From contig JAZSFD010000107.1 of assembly GCA_045532035.1 (NCBI GenBank), positions 383 through 64,382 on the forward strand: a stretch of 64,000 nucleotides of DNA, read 5' to 3'. The notes beneath the pieces were generated by a model. It had not been told where the DNA came from and searched no databases. It saw nothing but the letters and a program-made list of their open reading frames with translations. Source of the DNA: Eubacteriales bacterium. Its GTDB lineage: Bacteria; Bacillota; Clostridia; Oscillospirales; CAG-382. This document shows, one piece after another, positions 8,204 to 36,322 of this stretch (position 1 is its first letter; each line of letters starts with the position of its first letter). The position numbers and the translations under genes are program-made.

Positions 8204-9400
8204 TTAAATGTGAAGGACAACGCCGTCTTTCGTAAGGGCATCCTGAAGCTTTTTGATATCAAGGCTGTCAAAATCGTCGGACATGGCAGCAGCCGTTCCT
8301 GCCGCCTGACCTGTAACCGAACAGCAGGGGATAACACGCGTAATATCCCACATGGCATCGGTGTTGGAAATACATCTTCCTGCGGCGACAACATTTTTGA
8401 GATCGCCGTAAAGACATCTGAAGGGCACTTCATAAATAGGTCCGGGCTTTCTCCAGTCGGAAATGAGACCGATGCTGTCCTCAAAATACTTGTGATCCTC
8501 GGTGTCATCGAGGGTGTATTTTCCTGAAGGTCTGCGGGTCATGCGAACCTGCGGAATGGTGGCAATGGTGGAAATGGCGCGCTCACGATCCATCGTTTCG
8601 CCGCGCTTCATGAAATCGGAGAGAACCTTTTCGTGGGAAAGCTGGACCATTTCCGAAAGCTCTTTTCCGTCAAGGCCTGCAAATCTGCGGTTGATAAGAA
8701 GCTCGGTTGGGCGGCGCTTGTCCTTGTCCTTGTCGGGAACATCACAGCAACCGATGGGATGAATTGTGTATTTTCCGTTTTCTGTGGCAAAATACCATGC
8801 GGCAAGAATGTTGCCCTGACCGAACTTTTCGGTTTTTGCACCTGCGAGAGCAAAAACATCCGCATCTCCCGAAGCGTCGACAACGCTCCTTACCTTGATG
8901 GCGGAGCGTCCCGATTTGTTTTCGATAAAGAGAGCATCAACTTTTCCGTCGGTCACATTTGCAGCGCATACGCTTGTGCCGTAAAGTATCTCGACATTTT
9001 CTTTTAAGAGCAACTGTTCAGCGAGAATCATGAAGGTCGGGCCGTTGTAATCGACCATATAACGCCCGCCGTTCTTCTTTTCTTCGTCAGTGCCGTTTTC
9101 TACCCAAGCCTTCGGATATCTTCCCTCACAGCCATATTTGATGGAAAGCTTCAGAAGCTCTTCGGCAATGCCGAAGCTTACCTGACGGCCGCATCCGTCG
9201 CAGATGGGAAGATAAATGGTGACAAGACCAAGCGTTGCAAGACCGCCGAGGGCAAACTGCTTTTCGATAAGTATTGTTTTTGCACCGTGGCGGGCCGAAG
9301 CAATTGCTGCGGCAATTCCCGCAATACCTCCGCCGACGACGGCGACATCATATTCACCGTATACGGGAATCTGTTTTGCTTTTTCTTCGATGTAGTTCAT
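8204..9400 (-). CDS. FAD-dependent oxidoreductase, substrate unknown
   Basis: Dinucleotide-binding motif VAVVGGGIAGIAAAIASARHGAKTILIEKQFALGG near the N-terminus. I moved the start to ATG 9400 (MNYIEEK), which has AAGGAG upstream. Confidence 0.65.
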   Translation of the reverse strand: MNYIEEKAKQIPVYGEYDVAVVGGGIAGIAAAIASARHGAKTILIEKQFALGGLATLGLVTIYLPICDGCGRQVSFGIAEELLKLSIKYGCEGRYPKAWVENGTDEEKKNGGRYMVDYNGPTFMILAEQLLLKENVEILYGTSVCAANVTDGKVDALFIENKSGRSAIKVRSVVDASGDADVFALAGAKTEKFGQGNILAAWYFATENGKYTIHPIGCCDVPDKDKDKRRPTELLINRRFAGLDGKELSEMVQLSHEKVLSDFMKRGETMDRERAISTIATIPQVRMTRRPSGKYTLDDTEDHKYFEDSIGLISDWRKPGPIYEVPFRCLYGDLKNVVAAGRCISNTDAMWDITRVIPCCSVTGQAAGTAAAMSDDFDSLDIKKLQDALTKDGVVLHI

Positions 9401-19744: not shown

Positions 19745-20776
19745 CTATATGGTTTTAATAACGCTGCCTCGAGCCTCAAGGAGGAATTCATCACGTTCTT
19801 CTTTGCTTCTGAAAACGAAAATTCGTCCGAGCTTTGGCGAAGGTGCTTCGTCATGGAATTCGCCTTCAAATCTTTCGGTCGTCGCTTCGGAGATGTCGAG
19901 CATAAAGTCGTGGATTCCTCTGCGCGAGCCCTTTTCTACAACAGTATCGCCAAAGCTGTCTGTAAACATACGCTTTGTGTCAAAAATTCCGAAAATTGTT
20001 CCGTTTTCACGCAGGGTGTAATCTCCGACAAAATGAGAATTTTTCATTTTATCTTCGACGAGTTTGTGTTGTTCCTTGTCATAGTGCTTTATGCTGAAGT
20101 TGTTTCCGTCCAAGTGAAGCTGAGTGAATTTTTCCGGGGTGAACTCCTGGGTTATATTGATTGTACCGGTTCTTATGTAATCCTCATTTTCATTATTCAA
20201 ATGAACATGATACCACAGACCGGAAAGATCAAACACTTTGTTTTTTTCTTTCCATTCATCAAAATCTTTGCTGCCCGACTGAATGGGAGTAACTCTTGAC
20301 CATCCGATACATTTTGAAAAATTGTATGTGTTGAAGAATTGACCAAGAATTTTTCCGATGGTAAATTCTGATGTGATTCTTCTCGGGTGAAGGATCTTTT
20401 TGCTGAATTCGATCTGTTTTTTCTGGTCATCAGACAAAAGCGAAGCGTCCTTGTCGAGGTTTTTTACAAGCTCGTCGCACATAATAACGATCATCGGCTT
20501 TTCTTTTGAGGACGCATAATTATATTCGCGCTCTGTCCAGGATATGCCGTTTTGATCGCATGAGCCGTAATACTCACCCATCAACATAACGAAGAAGTCG
20601 GAATCGTCAATGAGTTCTGCAATTCCGGAGAATTCGTCTCCGGTAGAAATTGTGAAATGCTCCATTCCGATCGGCATGATGCGAAAATCGAGCAAATGGT
20701 TTATTACTTCACTTCGCTCATCGCGCAGACTTTCAAAAGCTGAAGAAATAAAGGCGGTATATACTTTTTTGACCAT
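19745..20776 (-). CDS. DUF4062-domain protein with an uncharacterised beta-rich C-terminal half
   Basis: The N-terminus VYTAFISSAFESLRDERSEVINHLLDFRIMPIGMEHF fits the DUF4062 signature as I recall it (vFISSTf.DL..eR..v...i...g..Pv.mE.F). aa ~185-343 carry no motif I recognise. The gene starts 13 nt after the stop of the 1811-aa gene, with an AAGGAA RBS. Confidence 0.6.
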   Translation of the reverse strand: MVKKVYTAFISSAFESLRDERSEVINHLLDFRIMPIGMEHFTISTGDEFSGIAELIDDSDFFVMLMGEYYGSCDQNGISWTEREYNYASSKEKPMIVIMCDELVKNLDKDASLLSDDQKKQIEFSKKILHPRRITSEFTIGKILGQFFNTYNFSKCIGWSRVTPIQSGSKDFDEWKEKNKVFDLSGLWYHVHLNNENEDYIRTGTINITQEFTPEKFTQLHLDGNNFSIKHYDKEQHKLVEDKMKNSHFVGDYTLRENGTIFGIFDTKRMFTDSFGDTVVEKGSRRGIHDFMLDISEATTERFEGEFHDEAPSPKLGRIFVFRSKEERDEFLLEARGSVIKTI

Positions 20777-20789
20777 TTTTTGTTCCTTA

Positions 20790-23700
20790 TCAATTGAGAT
20801 AAATATGAAGAATATTTAGCTCCTCGTTTGTCCGATGCAAAATACTGCTCGGTTTCTTTTTAAGATCGGAATTTGCTATGATATCAAAGAAGCCTTGCTT
20901 TTCAATAAGGCGGTCTTTGAAAAGACGCAGCATTTCGGGGGAGGAGAGCTTGAACGAAACGCTCTTTGCTCCTGCGTTCAGCTTTGCCGTCAAAAGCTTA
21001 TTTACCTGCTTTGCATCATATTCTTTGAAGAAAAGCTTGCTTCTGACAAAATAGTTGCAGGAGGTGGCGGTGCATTCGGGATAAAGCTGAGCATCGCTGA
21101 TATTTCTAGATCTGAGAAGCTCTTGCATTGTGATACAGAAATAATCATATGTCATGTCTTTTCCGCCGTCTTTTCGGGAGTCTGTGTTGCTCCTGTCATC
21201 CCAGGTGACATCCACATAATAGTAGTTGCCCTCAAGCTTGACGATATTCCATGCGTGCCACTCGCCGTCGTTGCACTGTCCTTTTACAAATGCACATTCG
21301 ATGCCAAGGCGGTTCATAAGATATTGGAAAGCCTTTGCATAGCCTGCGCAGACAGCTTTCTTTTCGACAAAAACGCCAAAGATAGAGCGGAGATTGTCAG
21401 GTTTCTTGTCGCTGTGGACATCTTGCTCCTGTTCTTCAAGTCCCAATGAGTCATAGTCGATAAGATCAACTATGTTCTCATGCGCAAGAAGTGCAACAGT
21501 GTAGTCGCTCATCGAAACATTTATGCCCTTGAAGAAGGGTTTGACTGCCGATTCGATCTGTTTTTTCCTGCGGGAGACCTCGGATTTTGTCATGATATAG
21601 TTCAAAATGACATTTGTGACTGTGCCGTAGCTGTCATAATGGGTCTGCGCGTAGGTGCGTGCTGTCCAGAAAATGTCGGGATTGTCTCTGATGACGATTT
21701 CCACAAGCTCGCCGATTCTCTCCTTGCTGACCGATCTTACGGGAGGACCCATTTCTGTTTTGAGCTCCATGATTGCCTGATAGATCTGATCATAGACCTC
21801 TTTTTCGTCAGCCGACAGACGGTTGTACCAGAATCTTGGTATGTTGTCGGGAGTACGCTCGGCGATTATCATATCCGGATCTTCCGGTTCGGGCTCGGGA
21901 ATCTCGGGCTCTTCGGGAGCCTCGGGGTCGCGGAGCTTGGTTCTCTTCTGTTTAAGCTCGCTTCCGCAAAGCAGAGCAAAGCTGTCTGTTGTGTTTTCGG
22001 CCGAAAGCAGCTTTTTCAGCTCGTCAAGTCCCGGACTTTGTGCATAGAGCTCTGAAAGAGCATCTGCCTCATTGGTATAATTGAGCGCGTAAAGCACCTG
22101 CATTTCAACATAGTTGGGATGAGCCTTGAAGATATCCGAGCCGTCGTTTACGATATTCTTTTCCTGCCACAGCTCTGTGATAAGTCTTGCGATGACTCCT
22201 GCTGCCGACACTGCGGGCAAACCGAACTCGACATAAACAGAGTTTGTCGCGTGATTGCAATAGCCGATGGGAAGCTCAGGTCCTGTTTTGTTGAATCTTG
22301 AAATAAGATCCTTTGTGGAAACAAAATCAATGCTGATATCCTTGGGGAAGCTATTGGGAACCTCAGTGCTTTCAAGGATGCTGTCACGCACAGAATCAAA
22401 GAGTTTTTCAAGCCCCTCAAAGGTATTGACAGAGCTTTCGATGCAGCTGTGACAAATGACTCTTCCATCCTCAAGAAGCTGTCCCTCATTGTGCTTTATT
22501 GCTTTGTGGCAGAAGAAGCAGGTGTTTGCATCCTTCTTTCTGACAAGCTCAGACCTTTCGATCTCATGTCTGAACTGCCTGAGAAGTACCTCCAGCTGTG
22601 TGATATCAAATATGTCGGGACACTCGGAATAACCAAAGTTGAGATAGTTGAAATCCTTGCCTGCGGGAGAGGTTGCCCATGCGAGAAAATCTGCAACAAC
22701 ATGAAGAAGATTTGTTACAACGATGCCCTCGCCGTCGATAAGAGTTTCGATAACTCCGTTGCTCGGCTCGGTATCCTCGATGATGGCAAATCTGATGCGT
22801 TTTGATTTTTCGGAGGCGTTCTGCTCTTCGCGAGCGGGTTCCTTGGGTGTTTCTGTCTGTGATTCGTCCTGATCGGCATCTGCAGCAACACCGGAGGCTT
22901 CGTCGGAAATGTCAGCTTCTTCGGACGGGATTTCGGGTTGAATTGTGTCGGAGGCCTTTGATTCCTCGGTCTCTTTAGCCTTTGCAGCTTCTTTTTCTTC
23001 CGCTGAAGCGCTTTCTTCAAGGATGATTGTGGGATAGAGATCGCGGATTGCCGAATGCTCCGAGAAGAACTCTTCTTCGTTTACATCATCAAAGAGGGGA
23101 CACACCGAAATACATCTGTACTGATGAGGGAACAGAGTCTTCATCATCTCGTTGAGTATGACAGAAAGGGTGTATGTAAGCTTGGGATTACTGTCAGCCT
23201 TCATATCAAGCGTGACAACAAGCATTTTTGATTTGATGTTTCTTCTGAGCTTTTCAAGAAGCTCGGGATTTGAACGCAGATTGATGTATTTTGCAAAATT
23301 GGTTTTTGCAAGGTCTACATTCTGAACCGCTTTTTCGATGGAATAATAACCGACGGTATCAACGGTTATATCTGCATTAACAAGCTCAAAGCCGACATGG
23401 TAAACAATGCTGTCCTTTGCTCTGAAATCAGGGCCGAAGGTTCTCAGGGTGACGGGGTTTTTGACGTTATATATTCTTGTCTGGATATAATCCATGGGAA
23501 TATTAACGCTTGGACCTGTGTCATCAAGGAACAGTGTTCCGTTTTTGATCGAGATGTCCTTGATGGTATAAGGACGGTTGTTTCTTGTAATGATCTGACC
23601 GGGAATGAAATGCTGTGTGATCTTATTCCTGAAGATCGAAAGATATTCAACGCTTTGAGTGTTGACATATTCGAGTCTGACGGTTTTTGTGGATTCAAGA

Positions 23701-26225
23701 AGCTTCTTGAAAAGACCGTTGGAATCCTCGAAGCGTACATATGTTACTGTTTCAAGGCGGGAATTGAGGAACTTTCTGAGGTTATAGCGGGGCTGATAAT
23801 CCTCGATGGGACCGAAGGCTGTTTCGTAGCAAAGGCGCACACATTTGTCAAGATCCTCACGGCTTTCGCTGAAGCAGTCTTTTTCTTCGCATTTGAGCTT
23901 GTCGCCGAGCAATTCGTAGGCGCGCTTGAGGAAAACGCCCTTTTCCATTCCGTTCACAGCGTCACAAAGAAGAATGATGACGCCTGCTTTGCTGGGATCG
24001 GCGTGTTCGCACATGGTCTCACCGATAAGCTCGAAACGGGAAACGTAATTCTGAGCGCGCGCGGTGAAATAGTCTCTCAGAAGATACGGCTTGCTGATAA
24101 CGTGCAGAACCGAAGAGCTTCTTCCCGAATATCTGGAATAATTGTAGATGGCGTTCGGCAAATCGAAAGCGTCATCCGAAACGATGACATATCCTGTATT
24201 TCCGTCGGAAATGTCACAGCTGTTCATGCAAAGTCCGGGGATCTCGTTCAACTGGCTGTTGTATACCGCTGTCTCTGAAATCAGGTTTATGTTTGAAACT
24301 CCGTCATCGCTGGCATCCTTTGAAAGCTGGACTTCGAGAGCCACCTGATTGGCGCCGTTATCGACATAAAGTGCCGAGGATATTCCCGTGTGCCAGACAA
24401 AAACATCATTTTTGGAGGACAGACCGAAGGAATTGAAGGTTTCAAGAGGTTCGTCACCAAGGTTGAAAAACTGTCTGATGCTGTTGTCGATGGCGTGAAT
24501 GTGACCGTTTGAAAGAAAACGGTATCTTACTCTTTTTGCGGTTTTTGAATTGAATTCGGGATCGTTCACTTGTGATTTGTTGCAAAGAGAGGAGTATCTT
24601 TCCAGCTTTTTTGCAATTATCAGGCAGTAATAATTGTTTGCGGAGAGCACCTTGTCGGTGTTGGGAATAAATACATCCACAAGCTCGTTGAAGAAGCTCT
24701 TTCCGTAGACAAACAGATCCTTTTCGAGGAATTGCGCAGGAGTCAGCATGAGTATATCAGGCTTTTCTCCTTTGTACATATCGTCAAAGGTGCTGATCCT
24801 CCACAGCGCCTGATTTGTTTTTGTGATATGGAGGAAGCCTTCTTTGAGGTATTCAGAGGCTTTTTTGATCTCCTTTTCGTCTTCGCAGATGAAAAGGACA
24901 CGTGTTCCGAATGAGAGCTTCACAAAAAGATAATGAATAATGTATTCACCAAGCGATGAATAGAGGGAGGAGTCGAAAAGAATGTGCTTGTCGTCAAGCA
25001 TTGACTCGATTCCCTGCATATAAGCGTTGTTGATGATCTTTTTGTTGGCTCTGATGGCTTTTGCCATGTTCTGAACCGCCTGCTTTTTCTCGTTGAGATT
25101 ATATGAGCTTTTTGAGGCGGAGGAGTCGGTGTTGAAGGTTTTGATGCGATAGCTTTGACCATATTTGTCAAGAAGCTGCTTGCGGTGGCTGTCGACATCC
25201 TGCTTTTCTTCTTCATAAACACCCTTGGCAAACGAAAGAGCGGGATCCTTCGCTTCGTCGGGCTTTTTATATTCTCCGTCAATAAAGCGGAGTATCTCAA
25301 AAAGCAGGATCAAAGAGATCATGGGGTAGAGATAAGTGTTGCTGACAAGCCACTGGGCAACCGAGTAGAAGCCGGGAAATTTTGTAAATGAGAAAAATAC
25401 AGGGAGAAGCATGGCAAGGCATATGATAAGATATACCACAGCCAGAAGAAACAGAAAATATTTCAGTTCATTTGCCCATCTGAAGGTAGAGGTCTTGACA
25501 TATCTGAAGTTTTCCTGCTTGTTATAAAACAGACCGATGAACTTGAACCACAGCTCCTTAACAAGCTCACCGAGAGTGACAGCTTTGTCTTCCTCGTATA
25601 CTTTTTCGGAGGTGACGGTATCTGTTATTTCTTCGGTGTCGGGATTCTCGGCGATATAATCGGAGGAGATGACCTTGACATTTTTGTTTTTTGATACATT
25701 CTTAAAAACCAGAACCGAATCACGGCGAAGCAGCTTCAAACGCTTTAAGAAAGAATCGCGGTTCTTTTTTTCTCCTGCGTTTTGAGGGGGAGAGGTAATC
25801 TTTTTTCTTTTTTTGTCGGAGGTATCCTCAGAAGAGTTCTTGCTGTTTTTGAAAAATGTCGAATCAAGAAACGCCCGTAAGATCTTTTTTGCCACCAGGA
25901 AGATATATGCGATTATGAGGTTGGAGAGAATAATTACAGCAACACTCACGGTATATACCGCTCTTGCGGGAATCAAACCTATAAGCCACGATAAGAGACC
26001 GAGCTTCAGCAGCCAGTCGAGCAGATTTTTCAACAGGGGGGCGAAGCACAAAAGAAGCAGTCCGAGGAAAATTGTTTCGAGCACAAAGCAGATGTTTCTC
26101 CATCTGCGGCTTTTTGTGTAGCCCACAGATGCCAGAGAGAAAGAAAACTTGTGCGGAAAAAAGGGAAGACACAAAAGGGCGAGAATAACAATGATCGCAA
26201 GTATTTTAAGCGGCAACAGGATCAT
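20790..26225 (-). CDS. 1811-aa polytopic membrane protein with Zn-ribbon, acidic disordered segment and C-terminal transglutaminase-like (papain-fold Cys-His-Asp) domain
   Basis: Hydrophobic helices at aa 1-120 (nt ~25865-26225) and aa ~255-315 (nt ~25290-25470). An acidic low-complexity stretch lies at nt ~22800-23020 (EESASAEEKEAAKAKETEESKASD..DADQDESQTE). CxxC..CxxC motif (CFFCHK..ICHSC) at nt 22440-22525. PE-rich linker (PEAPEEPEIPEPEPEDPD) at nt ~21870-21935. The transglutaminase core is AVCAGYAKAFQYLMNRLGIECAFVKG..EWHAWNIVKLEGNYYYVDVTWDD, with the Cys codon at 21348-21350. The GGAGG RBS and ATG overlap the upstream stop (ATGA). Confidence 0.7.
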   Translation of the reverse strand: MILLPLKILAIIVILALLCLPFFPHKFSFSLASVGYTKSRRWRNICFVLETIFLGLLLLCFAPLLKNLLDWLLKLGLLSWLIGLIPARAVYTVSVAVIILSNLIIAYIFLVAKKILRAFLDSTFFKNSKNSSEDTSDKKRKKITSPPQNAGEKKNRDSFLKRLKLLRRDSVLVFKNVSKNKNVKVISSDYIAENPDTEEITDTVTSEKVYEEDKAVTLGELVKELWFKFIGLFYNKQENFRYVKTSTFRWANELKYFLFLLAVVYLIICLAMLLPVFFSFTKFPGFYSVAQWLVSNTYLYPMISLILLFEILRFIDGEYKKPDEAKDPALSFAKGVYEEEKQDVDSHRKQLLDKYGQSYRIKTFNTDSSASKSSYNLNEKKQAVQNMAKAIRANKKIINNAYMQGIESMLDDKHILFDSSLYSSLGEYIIHYLFVKLSFGTRVLFICEDEKEIKKASEYLKEGFLHITKTNQALWRISTFDDMYKGEKPDILMLTPAQFLEKDLFVYGKSFFNELVDVFIPNTDKVLSANNYYCLIIAKKLERYSSLCNKSQVNDPEFNSKTAKRVRYRFLSNGHIHAIDNSIRQFFNLGDEPLETFNSFGLSSKNDVFVWHTGISSALYVDNGANQVALEVQLSKDASDDGVSNINLISETAVYNSQLNEIPGLCMNSCDISDGNTGYVIVSDDAFDLPNAIYNYSRYSGRSSSVLHVISKPYLLRDYFTARAQNYVSRFELIGETMCEHADPSKAGVIILLCDAVNGMEKGVFLKRAYELLGDKLKCEEKDCFSESREDLDKCVRLCYETAFGPIEDYQPRYNLRKFLNSRLETVTYVRFEDSNGLFKKLLESTKTVRLEYVNTQSVEYLSIFRNKITQHFIPGQIITRNNRPYTIKDISIKNGTLFLDDTGPSVNIPMDYIQTRIYNVKNPVTLRTFGPDFRAKDSIVYHVGFELVNADITVDTVGYYSIEKAVQNVDLAKTNFAKYINLRSNPELLEKLRRNIKSKMLVVTLDMKADSNPKLTYTLSVILNEMMKTLFPHQYRCISVCPLFDDVNEEEFFSEHSAIRDLYPTIILEESASAEEKEAAKAKETEESKASDTIQPEIPSEEADISDEASGVAADADQDESQTETPKEPAREEQNASEKSKRIRFAIIEDTEPSNGVIETLIDGEGIVVTNLLHVVADFLAWATSPAGKDFNYLNFGYSECPDIFDITQLEVLLRQFRHEIERSELVRKKDANTCFFCHKAIKHNEGQLLEDGRVICHSCIESSVNTFEGLEKLFDSVRDSILESTEVPNSFPKDISIDFVSTKDLISRFNKTGPELPIGYCNHATNSVYVEFGLPAVSAAGVIARLITELWQEKNIVNDGSDIFKAHPNYVEMQVLYALNYTNEADALSELYAQSPGLDELKKLLSAENTTDSFALLCGSELKQKRTKLRDPEAPEEPEIPEPEPEDPDMIIAERTPDNIPRFWYNRLSADEKEVYDQIYQAIMELKTEMGPPVRSVSKERIGELVEIVIRDNPDIFWTARTYAQTHYDSYGTVTNVILNYIMTKSEVSRRKKQIESAVKPFFKGINVSMSDYTVALLAHENIVDLIDYDSLGLEEQEQDVHSDKKPDNLRSIFGVFVEKKAVCAGYAKAFQYLMNRLGIECAFVKGQCNDGEWHAWNIVKLEGNYYYVDVTWDDRSNTDSRKDGGKDMTYDYFCITMQELLRSRNISDAQLYPECTATSCNYFVRSKLFFKEYDAKQVNKLLTAKLNAGAKSVSFKLSSPEMLRLFKDRLIEKQGFFDIIANSDLKKKPSSILHRTNEELNILHIYLN

Positions 26226-28457: not shown

Positions 28458-31400
28458 TTAGCCGAAATATTTGTTGAACAAAGCGGAAGCCCAGACAAAG
28501 CGTTTGTCTTTCTGAACAGCTTCACTTGCTTCGAAATCAAATACCTTTGCACCGTTGTCGGTAATGGGGTCTTCATCAAGATCCTCGGTGCTTCTACCGA
28601 AGTTGTTTTTCTTGGGTTCTTCCTTCGCTTCGGCCTTCATCTGCTTTGAAAGGGTTGCGACATATTCTTCCATAAACTTGTTGGCAATATGTGTGTAAAC
28701 ATCCTGATAACATCTGTAGGCTTCGTTTCCTGTATCTTTGTGCGCGATAGCATCGGCATTGTAAGGAGCGGCAGCGTATCTGTGGATGATATTGCAAAGA
28801 GTTTCGATGAGCAATTCTCCGTAATCCTTGTCGTGCTCGGTTTCCTCACTTGTATGTACATTATATGCGAATTCGATGAGGTTCATAGGATCCTTTTTCT
28901 TGGGAGCGGCCTTTGCTTTTCCGTTCTTTGCGCTGTCGATTTCAATGTTTCTGAGGATGTTTCTCTTGAACTGATTGAGGATGGCAGCGTAATTTGTGAT
29001 GCCTGTCTTGTATTCGCCGACATTCTCGCTGTATTTCGAAAGCTTTTCGATTTCGATGCCGATTCTTGCATCAAACTGAGACGAGTAGCTTTCAATGAGG
29101 CTTTCCTGATCGGCAAACCAGTTCATGACCCTGTTCAGCTTGAAATAGGGGATGGTCTTGCCCTTGTGAATGAGGATCTTATAATCCTGATCGCGGTTCG
29201 GGTCGCCGAATACGATTCTGGCATCAGAACCGTCGATGTCATATCCGATCTTTCCGTAGGTGATGGCAAAGAGGAATGCCTTTGCAAGGTCAAGACGGCG
29301 TTCTTCTTCCTTCTTGACATTGATGTACGGCATAACTCCGTGCTTGTGCCAACGCTTATCAAGGTGGGGAGACATCGAATAGCACTGAAGAGCTTCCATT
29401 TCTGCGATTCTCTTTGAATAATGCTCGAAGTATACACCGCCGTTGATTTCATCAAAGGGCTTGATCTGATAAGGCTGGAGACAGTGAACTGTTGAGTAGC
29501 AGAGAACTGTGTAGGGATCTACATTTTCACTGTTGACACAGTTGAGATTTACTGTCTGGCGCTGAGTATCCTTGGGAAGCATGGACGACATCTTGTCAAA
29601 GAAGGAGAATACGGAATCACCCGTAAGTTCTTCAACACGATCCTTGTTGACGGGATTGAACGAAAGATATCTGTAGAAGTTTGATACAGGCGGTTTTTTG
29701 TAATAAACATCGCCGTTTTCGTCCTCTACATCAAACATTCCGCTGTAATTGTCCGCGATATCGTATGAAAGGAAGGGCGCTGCCATCTGAACAAGGGTTT
29801 TGAACTTTCCGGAAATGAACTGGTCGAGTCTGTTTCTTGCCGCATCATCCTTGGAATAGGTTGCCTCGTCATCTTTGAATTCGGGAGAGGTAAGGGAGTA
29901 TTCATAAAGAAGAGCCTGGAAAACATTCATGTTGATCTTGTCCTGGACTTCCTTATTTTCGTGGATGCTGTCTGAAACGATGCTTGAAACGGTGTTGAAG
30001 AGACCGTCGATGCCGGTTGCTTTCTGGTCAACACCGAGCTTCTTTGCGGAGCCGGTGGATCTTATGCGCATGGCCTCGAAAAGTGCTTTGCTGATACTGC
30101 TTGCGGTAGATCCTGTTTTGGTGTTGATAAGGGAACCGCAGTCTTCATACATTTCGCGCTTGATGCGAGAAGAGGCACAAACATAAACATTTCCTCTGGC
30201 AAGCTCATGCTTTTTCTCGGAGGTTGTAATGGCGCCCTGTGTCTTTGTGGCGAATTCGTCAAGCTTGTCAAAGAACAACTCATATTCTGTGATAAGCTTT
30301 TGAAGTCTTTCGCTCACCTTGACGAGAGAGAAGTACATAAGAGCATCGACAAACACATCGTTTGCTTCGTTGAGCTTTCTGTCAAGAGTGGAGAAATAGC
30401 TGCTGACTTCTTTGACGGTAGCTTTTTTGCCGAACCATCTGTTCATTCTGTTTTCGAGGATCTTCTTGTTGGAGATGCCTTCCTCGCTTTCGCTTGCTCT
30501 GAGGACTTTGCGCTGCTTTTCAACCACCATTGTCATGAGGTAAGCGTAAAAATCATCGGCATCATCGGCTGCGGTATCTACCGGACTGATGATTTCTTCT
30601 GCCTTTTCATCGATTGCCAGCTTGAATTTATAGAGGAGATAGCGTGCTGCTACGGGGTGAATGTAATCGCCGGTTTTGTCATCGACGAGAAGACCGTTGA
30701 TGATGCCGATATCGCTTTTGTCGTAGAACTTCCACATCGAGCAATCTTCACAGAGAATTTTGTTAGAAAAGGCGATCGACTGGTCGATTGCAAAGTTGAG
30801 ACCCTTTTCGCAGTAATCGTCGATGTTTTCGTCAATATCGGAGATGGCCCAGAAAATGTTGCTGTCATCGTCCTTGCCCGAGCTGTTGTTGATCTTGGAA
30901 AGGATGCTTGCCTTTGCGCCGCCGATATCGCCGATATGTTCATCCTTTGCTTTGTTTATTCTGTCGTCACCGGCAATTTCTGAAGCTGCAAGAGACTTGA
31001 TCTTTTTCATGAGAGCGACAGAAGCATTTTCGCTGTTGCGAATAACAGAAGGTGCGAGGAATGAGAATTCATTCTTTGAAACACCTGTGGTCTTAACTCT
31101 CTTTTCGAAGGTGTTTATATAATGATTTGCTCTTTCGCCGGGTTCGGGAACATATGCCGGAAGACCGGAAGACTGAGCCACCATGTCCTTTTCCTTGCGG
31201 TAATTTTTCCACTCGTCATCGATGGCATTCCATACCGAATCAAGGCTGTCCTTCAATGCACGGTATGCAAAATAATTGACTATGTCATCGTGGGGATATT
31301 TCATCGAAGCGGCACCCGCGCTTCCGTAAATTGCCGACGGAGCGAGAGTGTGGGCGTGCATTTCGTTGGATTCGTTGGACCATACTTCACCCGAAATGTC

Positions 31401-32291
31401 TGTGTACAGATGTGAATAAGCTATATTTGCCATAGCCTTGTAGTATTCGGGAAGACCGCCCAGAATCTTGGAAAGATAGTTGAGCTTGTCGATGAAGTAA
31501 AGGATGTCGTAGGGCTTTTCGCCGTATCTGCCTTCGGAATCCTTTTCAAAAAGCTTGCCTTCACAGTCTGTGCTGATCTCGATGTCGAGATCGAGCTTTC
31601 CGCCGTATGCCGCGGTTGTGTCGGGGCCGCAGATGAGGTTGAAGGCGTTGAGCTCTCTGATGACGGCATATGCGTTTGCATAAAGGTTGGGGAGCATTTG
31701 AGCGGTAACAACGTTCTTGTAAAGATCGGGGCAGGCAAAAAGTCCGTGAACAACGGCATCAACACCTCTGTCTCTGAAGAACTTTTTGACATAGAGGGCA
31801 ACCTGAATGAATATACCCGAGCCTGTGCCGCCTGCGATGGAAGAGGCAATGAGAATTACAGGAGGCTTATCTTCGGCTGTGGTTGCTGTGGGGTCAAGCA
31901 TGAGGGAATCTTCAAGAATGCGTTCAAGTTCGTTTTTAGAATCCTTCAAGAAATTTGCAAGGCAGAGTCTTGACTTGAGTCTGCACTGCGAAGCACCGCC
32001 GAAAAGAGTGGAGGCAAAGAAGTTGCCTTCGTTGGGAGTGTTGGGGCACCATTCTCCTACATCTCCGCCGACGGAATTGTAATAATCGCCGACAGTGCCG
32101 TCTCCGCTGAGGCAGATCTTATTAACACCGAGCTGAGAAAGATGGTTGAGCTCATCCTGGTCGGTATCTATGGCAATACATGCCACATCGCTTTCAAAGC
32201 CCTTTCCGCGCTCATCAATGAGTCTTTTGTAGAGCTCTGTGATGATTTTGCCTCCGCTTCCGCCGAGACCGATAAAGTAATTGTGTTTCAT
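28458..32291 (-). CDS. Giant tubulin/FtsZ-superfamily GTPase (Pfam 'Tubulin_2'-like) with a ~950-aa C-terminal extension
   Basis: The N-terminus FIGLGGSGGKI (nt 32247-32270) resembles the T1 glycine loop. ILIASSIAGGTGSGIF carries the tubulin/FtsZ signature [SAG]GGTG[SAT]G (AGGTGSG at nt 31815-31835, checked codon by codon). AAGGAG RBS 7 nt before the ATG. Confidence 0.75.
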   Translation of the reverse strand: MKHNYFIGLGGSGGKIITELYKRLIDERGKGFESDVACIAIDTDQDELNHLSQLGVNKICLSGDGTVGDYYNSVGGDVGEWCPNTPNEGNFFASTLFGGASQCRLKSRLCLANFLKDSKNELERILEDSLMLDPTATTAEDKPPVILIASSIAGGTGSGIFIQVALYVKKFFRDRGVDAVVHGLFACPDLYKNVVTAQMLPNLYANAYAVIRELNAFNLICGPDTTAAYGGKLDLDIEISTDCEGKLFEKDSEGRYGEKPYDILYFIDKLNYLSKILGGLPEYYKAMANIAYSHLYTDISGEVWSNESNEMHAHTLAPSAIYGSAGAASMKYPHDDIVNYFAYRALKDSLDSVWNAIDDEWKNYRKEKDMVAQSSGLPAYVPEPGERANHYINTFEKRVKTTGVSKNEFSFLAPSVIRNSENASVALMKKIKSLAASEIAGDDRINKAKDEHIGDIGGAKASILSKINNSSGKDDDSNIFWAISDIDENIDDYCEKGLNFAIDQSIAFSNKILCEDCSMWKFYDKSDIGIINGLLVDDKTGDYIHPVAARYLLYKFKLAIDEKAEEIISPVDTAADDADDFYAYLMTMVVEKQRKVLRASESEEGISNKKILENRMNRWFGKKATVKEVSSYFSTLDRKLNEANDVFVDALMYFSLVKVSERLQKLITEYELFFDKLDEFATKTQGAITTSEKKHELARGNVYVCASSRIKREMYEDCGSLINTKTGSTASSISKALFEAMRIRSTGSAKKLGVDQKATGIDGLFNTVSSIVSDSIHENKEVQDKINMNVFQALLYEYSLTSPEFKDDEATYSKDDAARNRLDQFISGKFKTLVQMAAPFLSYDIADNYSGMFDVEDENGDVYYKKPPVSNFYRYLSFNPVNKDRVEELTGDSVFSFFDKMSSMLPKDTQRQTVNLNCVNSENVDPYTVLCYSTVHCLQPYQIKPFDEINGGVYFEHYSKRIAEMEALQCYSMSPHLDKRWHKHGVMPYINVKKEEERRLDLAKAFLFAITYGKIGYDIDGSDARIVFGDPNRDQDYKILIHKGKTIPYFKLNRVMNWFADQESLIESYSSQFDARIGIEIEKLSKYSENVGEYKTGITNYAAILNQFKRNILRNIEIDSAKNGKAKAAPKKKDPMNLIEFAYNVHTSEETEHDKDYGELLIETLCNIIHRYAAAPYNADAIAHKDTGNEAYRCYQDVYTHIANKFMEEYVATLSKQMKAEAKEEPKKNNFGRSTEDLDEDPITDNGAKVFDFEASEAVQKDKRFVWASALFNKYFG

Positions 32292-32326: not shown

Positions 32327-35300
32327 TCAGATTTGATTGCCGTTTCTGCGGAAGAACACGATTGCAAGCTGCTTTTCCTGAACCTCGCAGATAAATTCGT
32401 TTTCAAGGTTGATGCTGATGCCTTCCTTGGGATCGAAGCGGGTTTGGCGACCGATGAGCCTGCCTTCTTCAAAGGTATCTCTGGTGTCAAAGGCAAGGAT
32501 TCTGTCCAAATATGTTTGATTCAGTGCGCCTGTGTTGAAGACATAATCTTCGGGAGTGATATCGATAGTGGGTTTGCGCTCTATCGTCCAATGCGGATAG
32601 GTTCTTTCAAGACCAAAGGCGCGGGGGGCTATAAGATCTGCCGAATGTTCAAAAACACATACTCTTTTGCGCATACTCTTGAAAGGAAGCAGCACTTGAT
32701 GGGGGAGAACATACGGACGCTTTTTTATTACATTTACATCAATAAGGTTCCAGTCCCCGACAGTGTTCTTTCTGAAGGTTGCCCTGTAGAGCTTTCCCTT
32801 TATAAATCTTATTCGAGTGATGCAGCAGAATGTGAAATAAGCAACGAAAGCTATCACACCGAGAACCACCCAGAATATGATGAGAACTAAGGGGTTGGTG
32901 TTGACATGCACTATTGCGCTTACCTGCTGATCGTTGAAGGAGAGAACTATTTCTGTATCTCCGTCTTTGACAAGAAACAGATTTGCCCATTCCCAAAGGC
33001 TTGGGGAAATGAATGTCCAGCCGTTGTAGCAGGGTCTGACAAACAGATATCCGGTTTCGTCACCGGCGTCAAGAACTTTCACATCAAGTCCGATGTGCTT
33101 TTTGTTTTTGTTGAGATAAACGTTGCAATCGAGAGCCTCAAGCTCAGCCTTTGACAAAACTCTTGTATCTCTTGAAATTTCAAATTCAACACCGTCGGTG
33201 TTTTTTGTAAGCTCCACATCAACGACGGTTATGCCATCTTTTCTGACTGAAACCGAATGCTTGGGAGCAAGCACCGAAACTTCTGCTTTGCAGGGTTCTG
33301 CCGCGATCTGCTCAATAGAGGCGGTTATCGTGTGTGTCTTTTTGACATCTATGCCTGTTATTGCCGTGTAAGGAACGGCGCCTGCTGCATTTTCGTCATA
33401 TTGCGGGGTGAAAGACTTTCCGACGGGAAGATTTCCGTCATACACCGTTTCGATCTTGCCGGGAAGCTCGCCGTTATCGATCACAAGCCCGTTTGCAATT
33501 TCTGTGTCCCATTTTGCAAGAGGACCATAGTTTTCGCCGCCCGAATAATCTGCAAGAAGTGTGTAGACGATCTTCTTCTGATTCTTTTTGAGAGAGTCAA
33601 GGTTGAGATCTTCGGAAATCTCGGATTCTGCAGAGATCTTGTAGGCAGCTTTGCTTATGGCGATGGTGAATGCTTCCGATTGGATTGTACTGCCGTTCAC
33701 GCTTACCGTGGCGTAGATTTTGTGTTCTTTTCCAAGAATGTTTGCGGGGGAGTCCGAGCCGAGGTTTGGAACGAAGCTTAATGAGCCGTCGCTTTCCTTT
33801 ACGATCTCACCGGGAAGACCCGCGGTCTCGATCTTGAGTGTTTCATATATTTCCTTGTCGATCTCGGCAAGAGGACCGTAATTCTCGCCGCCCTCATAGT
33901 CGGCAAGGAGAGTAAAGGTCATTTTGTCCTTGTTACTCTTAAGAGTGTCAACAGAGAAGGTCTCAGGGAGTGAATTGTCAAGTTTTATCATGTATGAGGA
34001 GCTGCTGATAAATACCGTGATCTCTTCGGAGTCAAGAGTGGTATCTCCGACCTTGGCTGTGGCGGAAAGCTTGTGCTCCTTGTTGAGAATGTCCTCGGTC
34101 TTTAGTTTTTTGTCTTTTGGATCAAAAGAGGGGACAAAGCTTACCGAATCCTTTTCTTTTGTGAGCTTGCCGGGGAGTGTGGTGCTGTTCAGTTCAATGC
34201 TGAAGGTGCCCTTGTCGCACGCCGACTCGCTTATCGGAATAAACTTTCCGTCATTTTCGTAATCGGCAACGATTGTATAAGTGATGGCTTTTTTGTTTGA
34301 CTCAAGCTCAATGATCGAAAGCTGTGTGCTCAAAAGGTCTTTTTCGGTCTCGATTTTGTATTGAGGCTTTATTACCTCAACAGTTCTTGTCAGAATCGAT
34401 TGACCGTCAAAACAGACCGAAACCGAAAAGCTTTGGGGAAGTGAATTGAAATCCTGAGAAGCTTTTGGAGTATATATGATGCTTTTACCGCTTGTTTTCA
34501 CTTCGGAGAGCTCCGAGCATTTTCCGCTGTTGAAGCCGTTTGCTCCCTCGATCTTTATTTCAAGGTCATCAAGAATTCCGCTGTAAAGGTTCGAAAAAGG
34601 AAATTCAATTCCGTTTTTGCCGTTTGCCCAGTCATTAAAAAGGGGCTTTGTGAGGGAAATCTTTGCGGAATCTCCCGTCAGCGCCGAGGTGTCGATTACG
34701 GGTCTTCCTTTTATCTTTCCCAGCGATTCTTTCTGAACGAAAGGCTGATAACCGTCAAGGGTGGCTTCAATCTTCAGCTCTTTCCCCTCATAGTCTTTTT
34801 GCATGGTTACGACATATGAGCCGTTTTCGGTGTCTGCGTTTGTGACGGCTTTACCGTTGATATACAGGGTGTACTCGGGATTGAGAACATCGGAGGACAC
34901 CTTTGCGCCGAGCTTTCCGTTTTCTTCGATCTCAAAAAGTCCGCATTTGATGGCGAAAGAATCGCCTTCGTGGAGCTTATCCTTTATGTCCGAAAAGCTC
35001 AGAGGATCGGGATCGTCGCCCACATAGTATTCACATCCGAGCTTTACCGCAGGTTCCACAAGCACGACCACATTGCTCTTGTCGATGCCGTATGCCGAAA
35101 GATCGATGCTGTAATTTCCCTTGGGGAGGGGGGAGGCTGTGTCTTTGTTGGCTATAAGTGAAACGAAACCGTAGGGACGGTTTTCAGGAACTTTGTGCTC
35201 GACGGTGAGTATGTAATTCTTTGTTTCTTTAGGGGAGGGCTCCGGACAGTCGAGATTAAAACTTTTAACTTCGAAGGAAATGCCTTTCTGACTGCAGGTT

Positions 35301-36145
35301 ACAGGGAGCGCGATATCTCCGAAAGGTGAGTTTTCCTTCTGGACAAGAAGCGAAATGTTGTGCGCTGGATATTCAAGATCAAAGGTAAGCGTTCCGTTGC
35401 TGACAGCAGTCTTTGCGGTGATGTCAGTGCGTCCCATGATGGTTGCAGAGATATCTTTAACTGAGCTGATGATTTCTTTGCTCGACTTGGCTTTGCTCAC
35501 TGAGATTCCGTCAAGACCGCTTGCCGAAACGCTGTCTCCCATCATAAAAAAGATGGTTTCAAAGTCTGCACCATTGATGAATTCTTTTACTTTGCCGTCA
35601 GCCCAAAGCAGTTCGCTTGAAAAAGTCTTATCCTCTGTGTGGAAGGTGGTGTTTTGATCCAACTGACCATCTGCCATTACCACAAGGTAATATTTTGCAT
35701 TGTTTTTGTAAGTTCTATATGCTTCTTCAAGTTTTTTATATCCGGTTTCGAGTTCATTGTCTGTTCCACCTTCGACCAGCAGCTGTTTGAGTTTTTCTAT
35801 TTCGTTCTTCTTTTGTGTGCCAAGGTTAACTTTTCCGCTTTTGATGCCGGTTTTGTTTTTTTCTTGTTCTTCATCGTTCAGATATGTTACATAAAGAACA
35901 TCTTCTTCACCCATCATGGCGATAAAAGCCTGCATTGCATAGCTTGAGTAAGCCCATCTGAAGTCTGCATCTGCATCATTTGAATTTTTTCCCAGTCCTG
36001 CCATACTTGCAGAGTCATCAAACACAATTGATACGATTCTCGGTATATGCTTCGGAGAGGCTGATTCGTCAGCGGATACCGAAACGAATGTGGCGGAGGT
36101 TATGAGTATTAGCAATGACAGCAATGTCAAAAATATCTTTTTCAT
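32327..36145 (-). CDS. Secreted, C-terminally membrane-anchored von Willebrand factor A (vWA) protein with Ig-like repeats and a cytoplasmic tail
   Basis: ATG 36145 with AGGAG upstream. Signal peptide MKKIFLTLLSLLILITSATFVSVSA|DES. Complete MIDAS set: DDSAS (nt 36005-36019), GGTD, MADG. A beta-rich region follows with three ~120-aa tandem repeats. A single TM helix LVLIIFWVVLGVIAFVAYFTFCCI (nt ~32813-32896) is followed by the basic stretch RIRFIKGKLYRATFRK and a ~160-aa tail. Confidence 0.8.
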   Translation of the reverse strand: MKKIFLTLLSLLILITSATFVSVSADESASPKHIPRIVSIVFDDSASMAGLGKNSNDADADFRWAYSSYAMQAFIAMMGEEDVLYVTYLNDEEQEKNKTGIKSGKVNLGTQKKNEIEKLKQLLVEGGTDNELETGYKKLEEAYRTYKNNAKYYLVVMADGQLDQNTTFHTEDKTFSSELLWADGKVKEFINGADFETIFFMMGDSVSASGLDGISVSKAKSSKEIISSVKDISATIMGRTDITAKTAVSNGTLTFDLEYPAHNISLLVQKENSPFGDIALPVTCSQKGISFEVKSFNLDCPEPSPKETKNYILTVEHKVPENRPYGFVSLIANKDTASPLPKGNYSIDLSAYGIDKSNVVVLVEPAVKLGCEYYVGDDPDPLSFSDIKDKLHEGDSFAIKCGLFEIEENGKLGAKVSSDVLNPEYTLYINGKAVTNADTENGSYVVTMQKDYEGKELKIEATLDGYQPFVQKESLGKIKGRPVIDTSALTGDSAKISLTKPLFNDWANGKNGIEFPFSNLYSGILDDLEIKIEGANGFNSGKCSELSEVKTSGKSIIYTPKASQDFNSLPQSFSVSVCFDGQSILTRTVEVIKPQYKIETEKDLLSTQLSIIELESNKKAITYTIVADYENDGKFIPISESACDKGTFSIELNSTTLPGKLTKEKDSVSFVPSFDPKDKKLKTEDILNKEHKLSATAKVGDTTLDSEEITVFISSSSYMIKLDNSLPETFSVDTLKSNKDKMTFTLLADYEGGENYGPLAEIDKEIYETLKIETAGLPGEIVKESDGSLSFVPNLGSDSPANILGKEHKIYATVSVNGSTIQSEAFTIAISKAAYKISAESEISEDLNLDSLKKNQKKIVYTLLADYSGGENYGPLAKWDTEIANGLVIDNGELPGKIETVYDGNLPVGKSFTPQYDENAAGAVPYTAITGIDVKKTHTITASIEQIAAEPCKAEVSVLAPKHSVSVRKDGITVVDVELTKNTDGVEFEISRDTRVLSKAELEALDCNVYLNKNKKHIGLDVKVLDAGDETGYLFVRPCYNGWTFISPSLWEWANLFLVKDGDTEIVLSFNDQQVSAIVHVNTNPLVLIIFWVVLGVIAFVAYFTFCCITRIRFIKGKLYRATFRKNTVGDWNLIDVNVIKKRPYVLPHQVLLPFKSMRKRVCVFEHSADLIAPRAFGLERTYPHWTIERKPTIDITPEDYVFNTGALNQTYLDRILAFDTRDTFEEGRLIGRQTRFDPKEGISINLENEFICEVQEKQLAIVFFRRNGNQI
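33266..34366 (-). repeat. Three tandem ~117-127-aa protein repeats inside the vWA gene
   Basis: Repeat units start at YKIETEKD.., YMIKLDNS.. and YKISAESE... They share L(K/E)SN.K.(I/M)T(Y/F)T(I/L)(V/L)ADY.(G/N)(G/D).NYGPLA, LPG(K/E), SF(V/T)P and KEHK(L/I).AT. The units have diverged at the DNA level. Confidence 0.8.
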
Positions 36146-36201
36146 ATTAGCTCCTGAAATATGTAGTAGATGTGTATTGAATATAAAAATCCCTAATATA
36201 C

Positions 36202-36230
36202 ATTCTATCACTTGTGTCACATTTTGTCAA
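36202..36230 (-). promoter_or_regulatory. Near-consensus SigA promoter of the vWA/tubulin-like operon
   Basis: On the minus strand: TTGACA (36225-36230), a 17-nt spacer, TAGAAT (36202-36207). It lies ~55 nt upstream of ATG 36145 and immediately downstream of the terminator of the preceding operon. Confidence 0.75.
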
Positions 36231-36282
36231 TACTTGCGTTCATATTATTATATAAAAATATTATATAATTGCAAAAAATGTA

Positions 36283-36322
36283 CCGCACCGAGCGGATTTG
36301 ACTCGATGCGGCAGTGAAAAAT
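36283..36322 (-). terminator. Rho-independent terminator after the asparaginase-like gene
   Basis: On the minus strand CCGCAUCGAG pairs with CUCGGUGCGG (10 bp including one G-U) at 36293-36302 / 36312-36321, followed by ACAUUUUUUG. It lies 33 nt after the stop at 36355. Confidence 0.7.

Follow-up and report, generated by a model that had tools for sequence, protein, structure and literature searches.

A single-pass vWA membrane protein with a folded cytoplasmic domain in a conserved FtsZl1 operon of gut Clostridia

How a tubulin-like protein of the cytoplasm could work together with a von Willebrand factor A (vWA) domain exported to the cell surface is a question that was raised when the FtsZl1 proteins were first defined (Makarova & Koonin 2010, Biol Direct 5:33; PMC2875224). 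A vWA gene was found there in most FtsZl1 operons, some of the vWA proteins carried signal peptides and/or transmembrane (TM) segments together with an intact metal ion-dependent adhesion site (MIDAS), and membrane remodelling was proposed; in the published review, G. Jekely pointed to the outside/inside puzzle of exported vWA proteins encoded beside a cytoplasmic FtsZl1 (PMC2875224). The same puzzle is posed by a four-gene cassette in a 64,000-nucleotide stretch of a Eubacteriales bacterium (assembly GCA_045532035.1, contig JAZSFD010000107.1, positions 383 to 64,382, forward strand; hereafter "the window", meaning the whole of this stretch), in which the gene for a vWA-domain protein, here called vWA-TM, lies directly upstream of a gene for an FtsZl1-type GTPase. 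Sequence features and structural models together predict that vWA-TM spans the membrane of a monoderm gut Clostridium (Oscillospiraceae-like) as a type I protein, with the head on the outside and a small, orphan domain on the inside. It is conceivable, with a probability that we place near 0.45, that the cassette couples extracellular MIDAS binding to a membrane-proximal assembly of FtsZl1 with the two other cassette products, which are likened below to families B5 and B12. The gene and its parts, in window coordinates, are as follows.

32327 to 36145, minus strand: vWA-TM gene, 1272 aa plus stop codon; predicted type I single-pass membrane protein
36071 to 36145, minus strand: signal peptide, aa 1-25; MKK, hydrophobic core and VSA/DES junction; type I-like, no lipobox Cys
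35435 to 36040, minus strand: vWA domain, aa 36-237; MIDAS residues D43/S45/S47 (36005-36019), T128 and D159
34373 to 35407, minus strand: three non-repeat beta-sandwich domains, aa 247-375, 384-475 and 491-591; AlphaFold2 model, weak TcaA_3rd_4th match
33269 to 34369, minus strand: three tandem ~120-aa beta-sandwich repeats, aa 593-714, 715-831 and 832-959; mutual alignment and model
32900 to 33259, minus strand: juxtamembrane beta domain, aa 963-1082; both AlphaFold2 models
32816 to 32893, minus strand: single TM helix, aa 1085-1110; K/R cluster TRIRFIKGK after it; one long helix in both AlphaFold2 models
32330 to 32815, minus strand: predicted cytoplasmic orphan domain, aa 1111-1272 (162 aa); beta-rich, globular, the fastest-evolving part

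Only two hydrophobic segments are detected in vWA-TM by a 19-residue hydropathy scan, at aa 1-25 and at aa 1084-1110 (nt 32816-32896). The first has the MKK start, the hydrophobic core and the VSA/DES junction of the cleavable signal peptide that the initial annotation of this DNA had proposed, and lacks a lipobox cysteine; the second is the single TM helix proposed there, with the K/R cluster TRIRFIKGKLYRATFRKN directly on its C-terminal side. Both segments are family traits. Among 5.8 billion protein clusters, 43 are homologous to vWA-TM, and together with the window protein they make up the 44-sequence alignment to which the family counts below refer. All 43 come from Clostridia/Oscillospiraceae-type gut metagenome-assembled genomes (MAGs), and all are annotated as 'hypothetical' and have no Pfam domain; the runs that contain the vWA-TM sequence itself are gut DNA assemblies, the available RNA runs being transcriptomes of the host. 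One C-proximal TM segment followed by a further 144 to 201 aa is present in every member (44/44), and an N-terminal hydrophobic signal in 43, the exception (P0033) being N-terminally truncated. The net charge after the TM segment is positive or zero in 42 members and that before it zero or negative in most, which agrees with the positive-inside cluster described earlier for the window protein. The C-terminal hydrophobic segment could otherwise be taken for a sortase- or anchor-type signal with no cytoplasmic domain behind it, a reading that is ruled out: no LPxTG motif occurs in any of the 44 members, and the 144 to 201 residues beyond the TM segment are folded in the model. The receptor-like, type I build of signal peptide, one TM helix and folded inner domain is conserved across the family. 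The plan is the same in a sister family of 51 clusters (717 to 890 aa, ~25% identical to the window family), with a signal peptide, a MIDAS at aa ~40-60, a TM segment and a 120-170-aa tail. Precomputed annotation places PF13519 on three sister-family members, and one is named 'VWA domain-containing protein' by NCBI.

The complete MIDAS set reported for the head is present in the window protein as DDSAS (36005-36019), GGTD (with T128) and MADG (with D159), and all five residues (D43, S45, S47, T128, and D159) are invariant in the alignment. In an AlphaFold2 model of the ectodomain (aa 26-1120, built on the 44-sequence alignment; mean predicted local distance difference test [pLDDT] score, 76.9), the head is predicted with pLDDT values of 85 to 93 as b1-a1-b2-b3-a2-a3-b4-a4-b5-b6-a6. 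DxSxS follows right after b1 (strand 11-17), the a2-a3 loop ahead of helix 107-124 holds T128, and D159 ends b4 (strand 126-133); as modelled, this order of strands and helices and this placement of the MIDAS are the canonical arrangement of vWA and integrin I domains. The whole window protein has no vWA match in Pfam at E < 0.01, and the head alone (the N-domain) matches VWA_2 best, at E = 0.051, below significance. A distant homologue encoded in the operon at locus L014 matches VWA_2 (5e-5) and VWA (2e-4), both just under the gathering scores. The full-length family profile finds 0 PDB chain sequences at E <= 1, and the N-domain profile finds seven sub-threshold matches. vWA domains of collagen VI or of integrin alpha-M account for four of these, and their alignments fall on the GGT...vvxDG segment (integrin alpha-M I domain, E ~0.9). 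In Foldseek searches, the whole ectodomain matches the vWA tip pilin SpaC (E 2e-10, ~950 columns [955]), as well as C3bBb and many multi-immunoglobulin (Ig) and adhesion ectodomains. Because of the invariant MIDAS, the modelled fold, the VWA_2 and VWA matches of the L014 homologue, the sub-threshold PDB matches, and the SpaC match, the assignment of the N-terminal alpha/beta domain as a vWA domain is well supported, though Pfam gives no significant call.

Between the head and the membrane the model places a stalk of seven beta-sandwich domains. The initial annotation had described ~900 aa of beta-rich sequence here; the beta-rich character holds, and the length is corrected to about 846 aa. 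It had also recognized three tandem repeats of ~120 aa, and these align mutually at z = 12 to 27 relative to shuffled sequences, whereas the juxtamembrane domain does not align with them. The first two non-repeat beta domains are about as conserved as the vWA head (mean pairwise identities of 50% and 54%, respectively). The number of repeats varies within the family: one in 3 members, two in 31, three in 7 (the window protein included), and four in 3 (n=44). Such variation, from one to four, is as in surface proteins that need to span an envelope. At roughly 4 nm per sandwich, the seven domains would reach about 25 to 30 nm, which is on the order of a Gram-positive wall.

The part beyond the TM helix had been described as a ~160-aa tail with no known motif. 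The size is borne out (162 aa), and the tail has no match in Pfam, NCBIfam or PADLOC; it is not a linear tail, however, and is predicted instead to be a folded, globular domain. AlphaFold2 models aa 1060-1272 with a pLDDT of 88.4 and a predicted template-modelling score (pTM) of 0.77, as the last ectodomain beta hairpin, a long helix (aa 1085-1109), and a compact, mostly-beta domain with three short helices. Foldseek searches with the tail against PDB and BFVD return nothing below E = 0.1, and the eIF4E-like structures at the top of the list (TM-scores ~0.15) are not meaningful matches. A tail-only profile run against 1.84 billion representative proteins finds 18 matches, all of them members of this family or fragments thereof, and no outside relative. 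The tail is the least conserved globular part of the protein (mean pairwise identity, 25%) and the head the most conserved. Since the tail has a confidently predicted fold and is kept in every member despite 25% identity, selection acts on it as a domain. The tails of the long (window) and short (sister) families match each other weakly, with an hhalign probability of 20% and E 1e-3 over the 66 membrane-proximal columns. A K/R-rich extension ends the tail in 25 of the 44 members; the window protein is without it.

The vWA-TM gene is followed on the minus strand, after 35 bp, by the tubulin-like gene (Tub2), after a further 40 bp by a gene for a 731-aa protein (p731), and then, with a 4-bp overlap, by a gene for an 1811-aa protein. 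The three partners are as follows.

28458 to 32291, minus strand: FtsZl1-type tubulin-like GTPase (Tub2), 1277 aa; Pfam Tubulin_2, E = 9e-39; GGTGSG G-box; no TM segment
26222 to 28417, minus strand: p731, 731 aa, TM hairpin at aa 529-585; no known domain; matches family 'B5' by position and size
20790 to 26225, minus strand: 1811-aa membrane protein, 'B12'-like; TM segments all in aa 1-315; Zn ribbon, degenerate zincin and transglutaminase-like domain

The adjacency to a tubulin-like GTPase that had been pointed out for the vWA gene is part of a conserved operon, with vWA-TM directly upstream of Tub2. The four-gene order is kept in 12/12 close loci and in three nearer relatives, and occurs in divergent form in L013, L014, and L021. 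The flanks vary by locus, with cohesin, MFS, acyltransferase, TerB, type III CRISPR RAMP, EamA or SSF genes upstream and Rnf, GH95 or DUF4062 genes downstream. Because the flanking genes differ between loci, the four genes appear to travel as a unit.

Tub2 has a C-terminal region of ~900 aa that ends in a charged linker and the conserved peptide DKRFVWASALFNKYFG. Its orthologues end likewise, in a charged low-complexity linker with an FGR motif and then a conserved amphipathic [KR]xxWAxxxhxxxh peptide (28458-28550 in the window, minus strand). The layout resembles the linker and tether peptide of FtsZ and, by analogy, suggests docking onto a membrane-bound partner, which might be the vWA-TM tail, B5 or B12. 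In the 1811-aa protein, a CxxC...CxxC Zn ribbon (aa 1236-1261) precedes a Transglut_core match (7.8e-7) with Cys1626, His1657, and Asp1672; across 17 homologues, neither this Cys/His/Asp triad nor the cysteines of the Zn ribbon vary. The zincin site, RLITE throughout the window family, reads RLITELWQ here (aa ~1347-1354, nt ~22164-22187) as opposed to HELTHIWQ in the sister homologues P0077 and P0078. The 1811-aa protein thus appears to be of the B12 type, with a decayed zincin site and a retained transglutaminase-like triad, a pattern indicative of a dual-peptidase history. Searches of PDB sequences with p731 and Tub2 found nothing, and Pfam matches at E <= 5 for the tail, the stalk, the Tub2 C-terminal region, p731, and the 1811-aa protein are noise, bar Transglut_core and the weak TcaA_3rd_4th match. 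No GxxxxGK[ST] P-loop motif is found in Tub2, p731 or the 1811-aa protein, and no GTPase Pfam match in the cassette or its flanking genes. The partners have no signal peptide or have TM segments confined to one region, and the invariant Zn ribbon of B12 suggests that it is located in the cytoplasm. By topology assigned manually, Tub2, B5, and B12 are probably cytoplasmic or cytoplasm-facing, and vWA-TM would be the only route of the cassette from outside to inside.

The closest described counterparts are the vWA-FtsZl1-B5-B12 operons of Ruminococcus lactaris (RUMLAC_01529-01526) and 'Bacteroides' capillosus (BACCAP_04124-04121), listed in Additional file 5 of the 2010 study (PMC2875224). The window cassette shares with them the gene order, comparable sizes, a Tubulin_2/FtsZl1 protein with a long C-terminal region, a MIDAS vWA protein with signal peptide and/or TM segment, a second protein of ~650 to 730 aa, and a large membrane-associated Zn-finger protein; the sister-family relatives of the 1811-aa protein have HELTH at the place given as 'zincin' in the 2010 table. 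It differs in the length of the vWA protein (1272 aa, versus 732 to 861 aa), which is due to extra beta domains and repeats, and in the B12-like protein, in which HExxH is lost and the transglutaminase-like triad kept, in contrast to the zincin-bearing B12 of 2010. The cytoplasmic domain of the vWA protein is absent from the 2010 description. By order, size, and described features, on which the likening to B5 and B12 is based, we take the window cassette to be probably of the vWA-FtsZl1-B5-B12 type, with an expanded stalk and a degenerate zincin.

Other systems combine some of the same parts. Tubulin-containing GAP1-N2 systems of Firmicutes and Actinobacteria have an extracellular or membrane-bound vWA protein and are read as conflict systems (Kaur, Burroughs, Iyer & Aravind 2020, eLife 9:e52696; PMC7159879). 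They share with the window cassette a tubulin-superfamily protein whose C-terminal region is helical, a membrane-bound extracellular vWA, beta-rich or fibronectin type III (FNIII)-like repeats, and a predicted membrane-proximal role. The window cassette, in contrast, has no GAP1/double-Zn-ribbon (TRAFAC) GTPase, one tubulin gene rather than two, and one TM segment rather than several, and in place of a YtkA-vWA partner it has B5 and B12. Because it has no P-loop GTPase, it is not a GAP1-N2 system. The contrast that the initial annotation drew with most vWA proteins of conflict systems overstated the novelty of the arrangement, given that extracytoplasmic or membrane MIDAS vWA proteins in FtsZl1 operons (PMC2875224) and extracellular vWA proteins in tubulin systems (PMC7159879) had both been described. 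The Esr pathway of Actinomycetales, in which a surface Ig-stalk sensor and a transglutaminase trigger Esx secretion (bioRxiv 2026; PMC13622651), has in common a Sec-exported Ig-stalk surface protein with a terminal binding domain, transglutaminase and vWA components, and a link to type VII secretion (here at locus L021). It differs in having a beta-propeller sensor head, a cytoplasmic vWA protein with MoxR, kinase/phosphatase/FHA signalling, and no tubulin-like protein (PMC13622651).

As for the ectodomain, SpaC of Lacticaseibacillus rhamnosus GG (PDB 6M48) likewise has a secreted MIDAS vWA head on Ig-like sandwiches. Adhesins of this type, however, are LPxTG/sortase-anchored and polymerised into pili, whereas the window protein has a TM helix, a domain predicted to fold in the cytoplasm, and a tubulin-like operon partner. 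RrgA and GBS104 also belong to the vWA-bearing tip adhesins of Gram-positive pili. The likeness to integrin receptors that had been drawn for this protein lies in a MIDAS vWA head on a stalk, a single-pass TM segment, and, in the cytoplasm, a part that neighbours a cytoskeletal protein. The heterodimer partner of integrins is missing, as are, by Pfam, their beta-propeller, hybrid, PSI, and EGF domains; the stalk consists of generic Ig-like sandwiches, and the short, actin-linked integrin tail, which binds talin or kindlin, contrasts with a 160-aa globular tail and a tubulin-superfamily neighbour. The likeness is thus one of analogy and not of membership, with the vWA fold alone common to both.

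Transcription signals delimit the cassette at its upstream end and also settle the start of vWA-TM.

36202 to 36230, minus strand: promoter-like site, TTGACA-17-TAGAAT with TG extension, 11/12 consensus positions; predicted to serve the vWA-led operon
36151 to 36155, minus strand: AGGAG ribosome-binding site, 5 nt 5' of ATG 36145
36281 to 36313, minus strand: terminator-like hairpin, 13-bp stem and T run; closes the upstream TIR/asparaginase-like operon

The open reading frame is listed as 32327-36220 (minus strand), and the actual start is ATG 36145. GTG 36220 is ruled out as the start, since it is upstream of the -10 element and since AGGAG precedes ATG 36145; the promoter-like site itself is placed between the upstream terminator and ATG 36145. 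Upstream of the cassette is an operon (36355-39373, minus strand) for three proteins, one with two TIR domains, one with a single TIR domain, and one that is asparaginase-like, with intact TGGTIG and HGTDT catalytic motifs. It is separate from the vWA operon because the terminator-like hairpin at 36281-36313 lies between them. The pairing of TIR and asparaginase genes recurs in L015, L016, and L017, TIR genes also lie upstream in L018, where the genomic surroundings differ, and the operon may represent an undescribed TIR-amidohydrolase defence pair. Its genes were considered as part of the cassette core and rejected, being cut off by the terminator and absent from 10/12 more distant loci, and we regard them as a lineage-specific neighbour.

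Downstream of the cassette, a gene for a 343-aa DUF4062 (TIR-like) protein (19745-20776, minus strand) starts 13 bp past the stop codon of the 1811-aa gene with no terminator between, and may be co-transcribed with the cassette; it was not found downstream of the cassette in L019 or L020. In an Acutalibacteraceae MAG (L006), a type III CRISPR RAMP-S1 fusion gene (8353-9180) is directly upstream of the cassette, and TerB genes have that position in L005 and L008. In L021 (15706-25649), the sister cassette is followed right away by an FtsK_SpoIIIE gene (EssC-like, 1515 aa) and then by genes for a YukD-like protein, ~100-aa proteins, an Mbeg1-like protein, and a Ser/Thr kinase, a neighbourhood that by its gene content appears to be type VII secretion-like.

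Since vWA-TM would be the sole extracellular part of the cassette, coupling across the membrane is plausible, and we infer both the coupling and its outside-to-inside direction. The MIDAS site would bind a conserved carboxylate-bearing ligand at or beyond the cell wall, and occupancy or clustering would be passed via the single helix to the cytoplasmic domain. This domain, with membrane-anchored B5, would then recruit or nucleate the FtsZl1 GTPase at the membrane, the GTPase joining via its conserved C-terminal peptide on a flexible linker, in the manner of an FtsZ tether, and the resulting assembly would control the cytoplasmic enzyme domain of B12. In a stronger form, tails clustered by the ligand would set off FtsZl1 polymerisation on the membrane, by way of the C-terminal peptide and with B5 as the anchor, and B12 would thereby be switched on as an alarm for envelope damage or invaders. 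The cassette would then be a tubulin-based counterpart of integrins; we consider this form a long shot. Several observations weigh against coupling of this kind. T6-H7 elements were described as not recognisable in FtsZl1 proteins, and these may be unable to polymerise (PMC2875224). The topologies of B5 and B12 were worked out manually, from hydropathy together with the positive-inside rule, and not with a trained predictor. Complementary charges on the K/R-rich ends of the tails and on the acidic linkers of Tub2 were looked for over 12 loci, and the idea was rejected (r = 0.19). None of the four cassette proteins has a match in PADLOC-DB v2, a point that bears equally on a role in defence, and matches to its models, of the ThsB-like or SAVED-TIR kind, are confined to the TIR proteins encoded nearby. 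The head, moreover, is the most conserved part of the protein, so that a housekeeping or envelope ligand fits as well as a signal.

The cassette might also be a conflict or defence system, which would give the outside-in model a specific purpose: the vWA head would sense a phage, an epibiont or a competitor, FtsZl1 assembly would set a threshold, and B12, joined in some lineages by the TIR neighbours, would be the effector. A presumed sensor head that evolves slowest and a tail that evolves fast argue against tracking of variable invaders by the head, and a conserved envelope or host ligand fits this pattern better than their direct recognition. Hints of a defence purpose come from neighbouring genes, namely the TIR genes immediately upstream in two settings (the window, L015, and L017; and L018), the DUF4062 gene 13 bp downstream in the window, the type III CRISPR RAMP gene (L006) and TerB genes (L005 and L008) upstream, and the FtsK_SpoIIIE and YukD genes after the sister cassette in L021, and the varied contexts are like those of an accessory module. 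The classification of tubulin-vWA neighbourhoods as conflict systems (PMC7159879) and the triggering of Esx secretion by a surface Ig-stalk sensor with a transglutaminase (PMC13622651) point the same way. The TIR/asparaginase genes nevertheless form their own operon behind a strong terminator and are absent from 10/12 more distant loci, and the cassette has neither a GAP1-type nor any other P-loop GTPase. We hold a defence purpose to be somewhat doubtful.

The direction could also be reversed, with vWA-TM as a surface adhesin or envelope anchor that an internal FtsZl1 scaffold positions, clusters or tensions, as a 'focal adhesion' or remodelling machine with no inward signal. A vWA adhesin, CglB, acts at the focal adhesions of gliding Myxococcus. 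The Foldseek match to SpaC over 955 columns (E 2e-10) and the many adhesion ectodomains among the matches are consistent with such a role, as are the conservation of the head and the first two beta domains above a stalk of variable length, and membrane remodelling is what was first proposed for these operons (PMC2875224). A pure anchor, however, would have no need of a giant enzyme whose catalytic triad is invariant, the context is patchy and variable with defence genes beside several copies, and there is no known motility or adhesion phenotype in these taxa; we judge this alternative unlikely. The ectodomain plan, being like that of known adhesins, would also suit a plain membrane-anchored adhesin that has no functional link to its neighbours and whose cytoplasmic domain only retains or sorts the protein. 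That reading is highly improbable in view of the strict, tight four-gene order, kept down to ~25% identity while the flanks change, the vWA-FtsZl1 linkage across phyla (PMC2875224), and the ~160-aa domain after the TM segment that is kept in all 95 clusters.

Taken as an observation, the initial annotation is confirmed, with all of its elements found where it had placed them. Its interpretation finds partial support: the build is indeed receptor-like, signalling is plausible, and outside-in signalling of the integrin kind is only an analogy. To the earlier descriptions the present analysis adds a domain map of vWA-TM, a confidently folded orphan tail, a stalk with a variable number of repeats, an FtsZ-like C-terminal peptide in Tub2, and a probable dual-peptidase history of B12.

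Within the tubulin/FtsZ superfamily no branch is more divergent than FtsZl1, which has gone sixteen years without an experimental function, and a literature search turned up no later functional study of it. The vWA-TM family offers a testable answer to how a cytoplasmic tubulin-like protein works with an exported vWA domain, in the form of one membrane-spanning protein in a compact cassette. Were vWA-TM an anchored adhesin only, the finding would be an ordinary one. If FtsZl1 polymerisation does switch on B12 as an alarm, the cassette would amount to a signalosome based on the cytoskeleton, something that has yet to be demonstrated in bacteria. If the cassette does couple extracellular MIDAS binding to the FtsZl1/B5/B12 assembly, it would show a bacterial link from extracellular binding to a tubulin-like assembly and would provide a handle on uncharacterised operons in gut Firmicutes and beyond.

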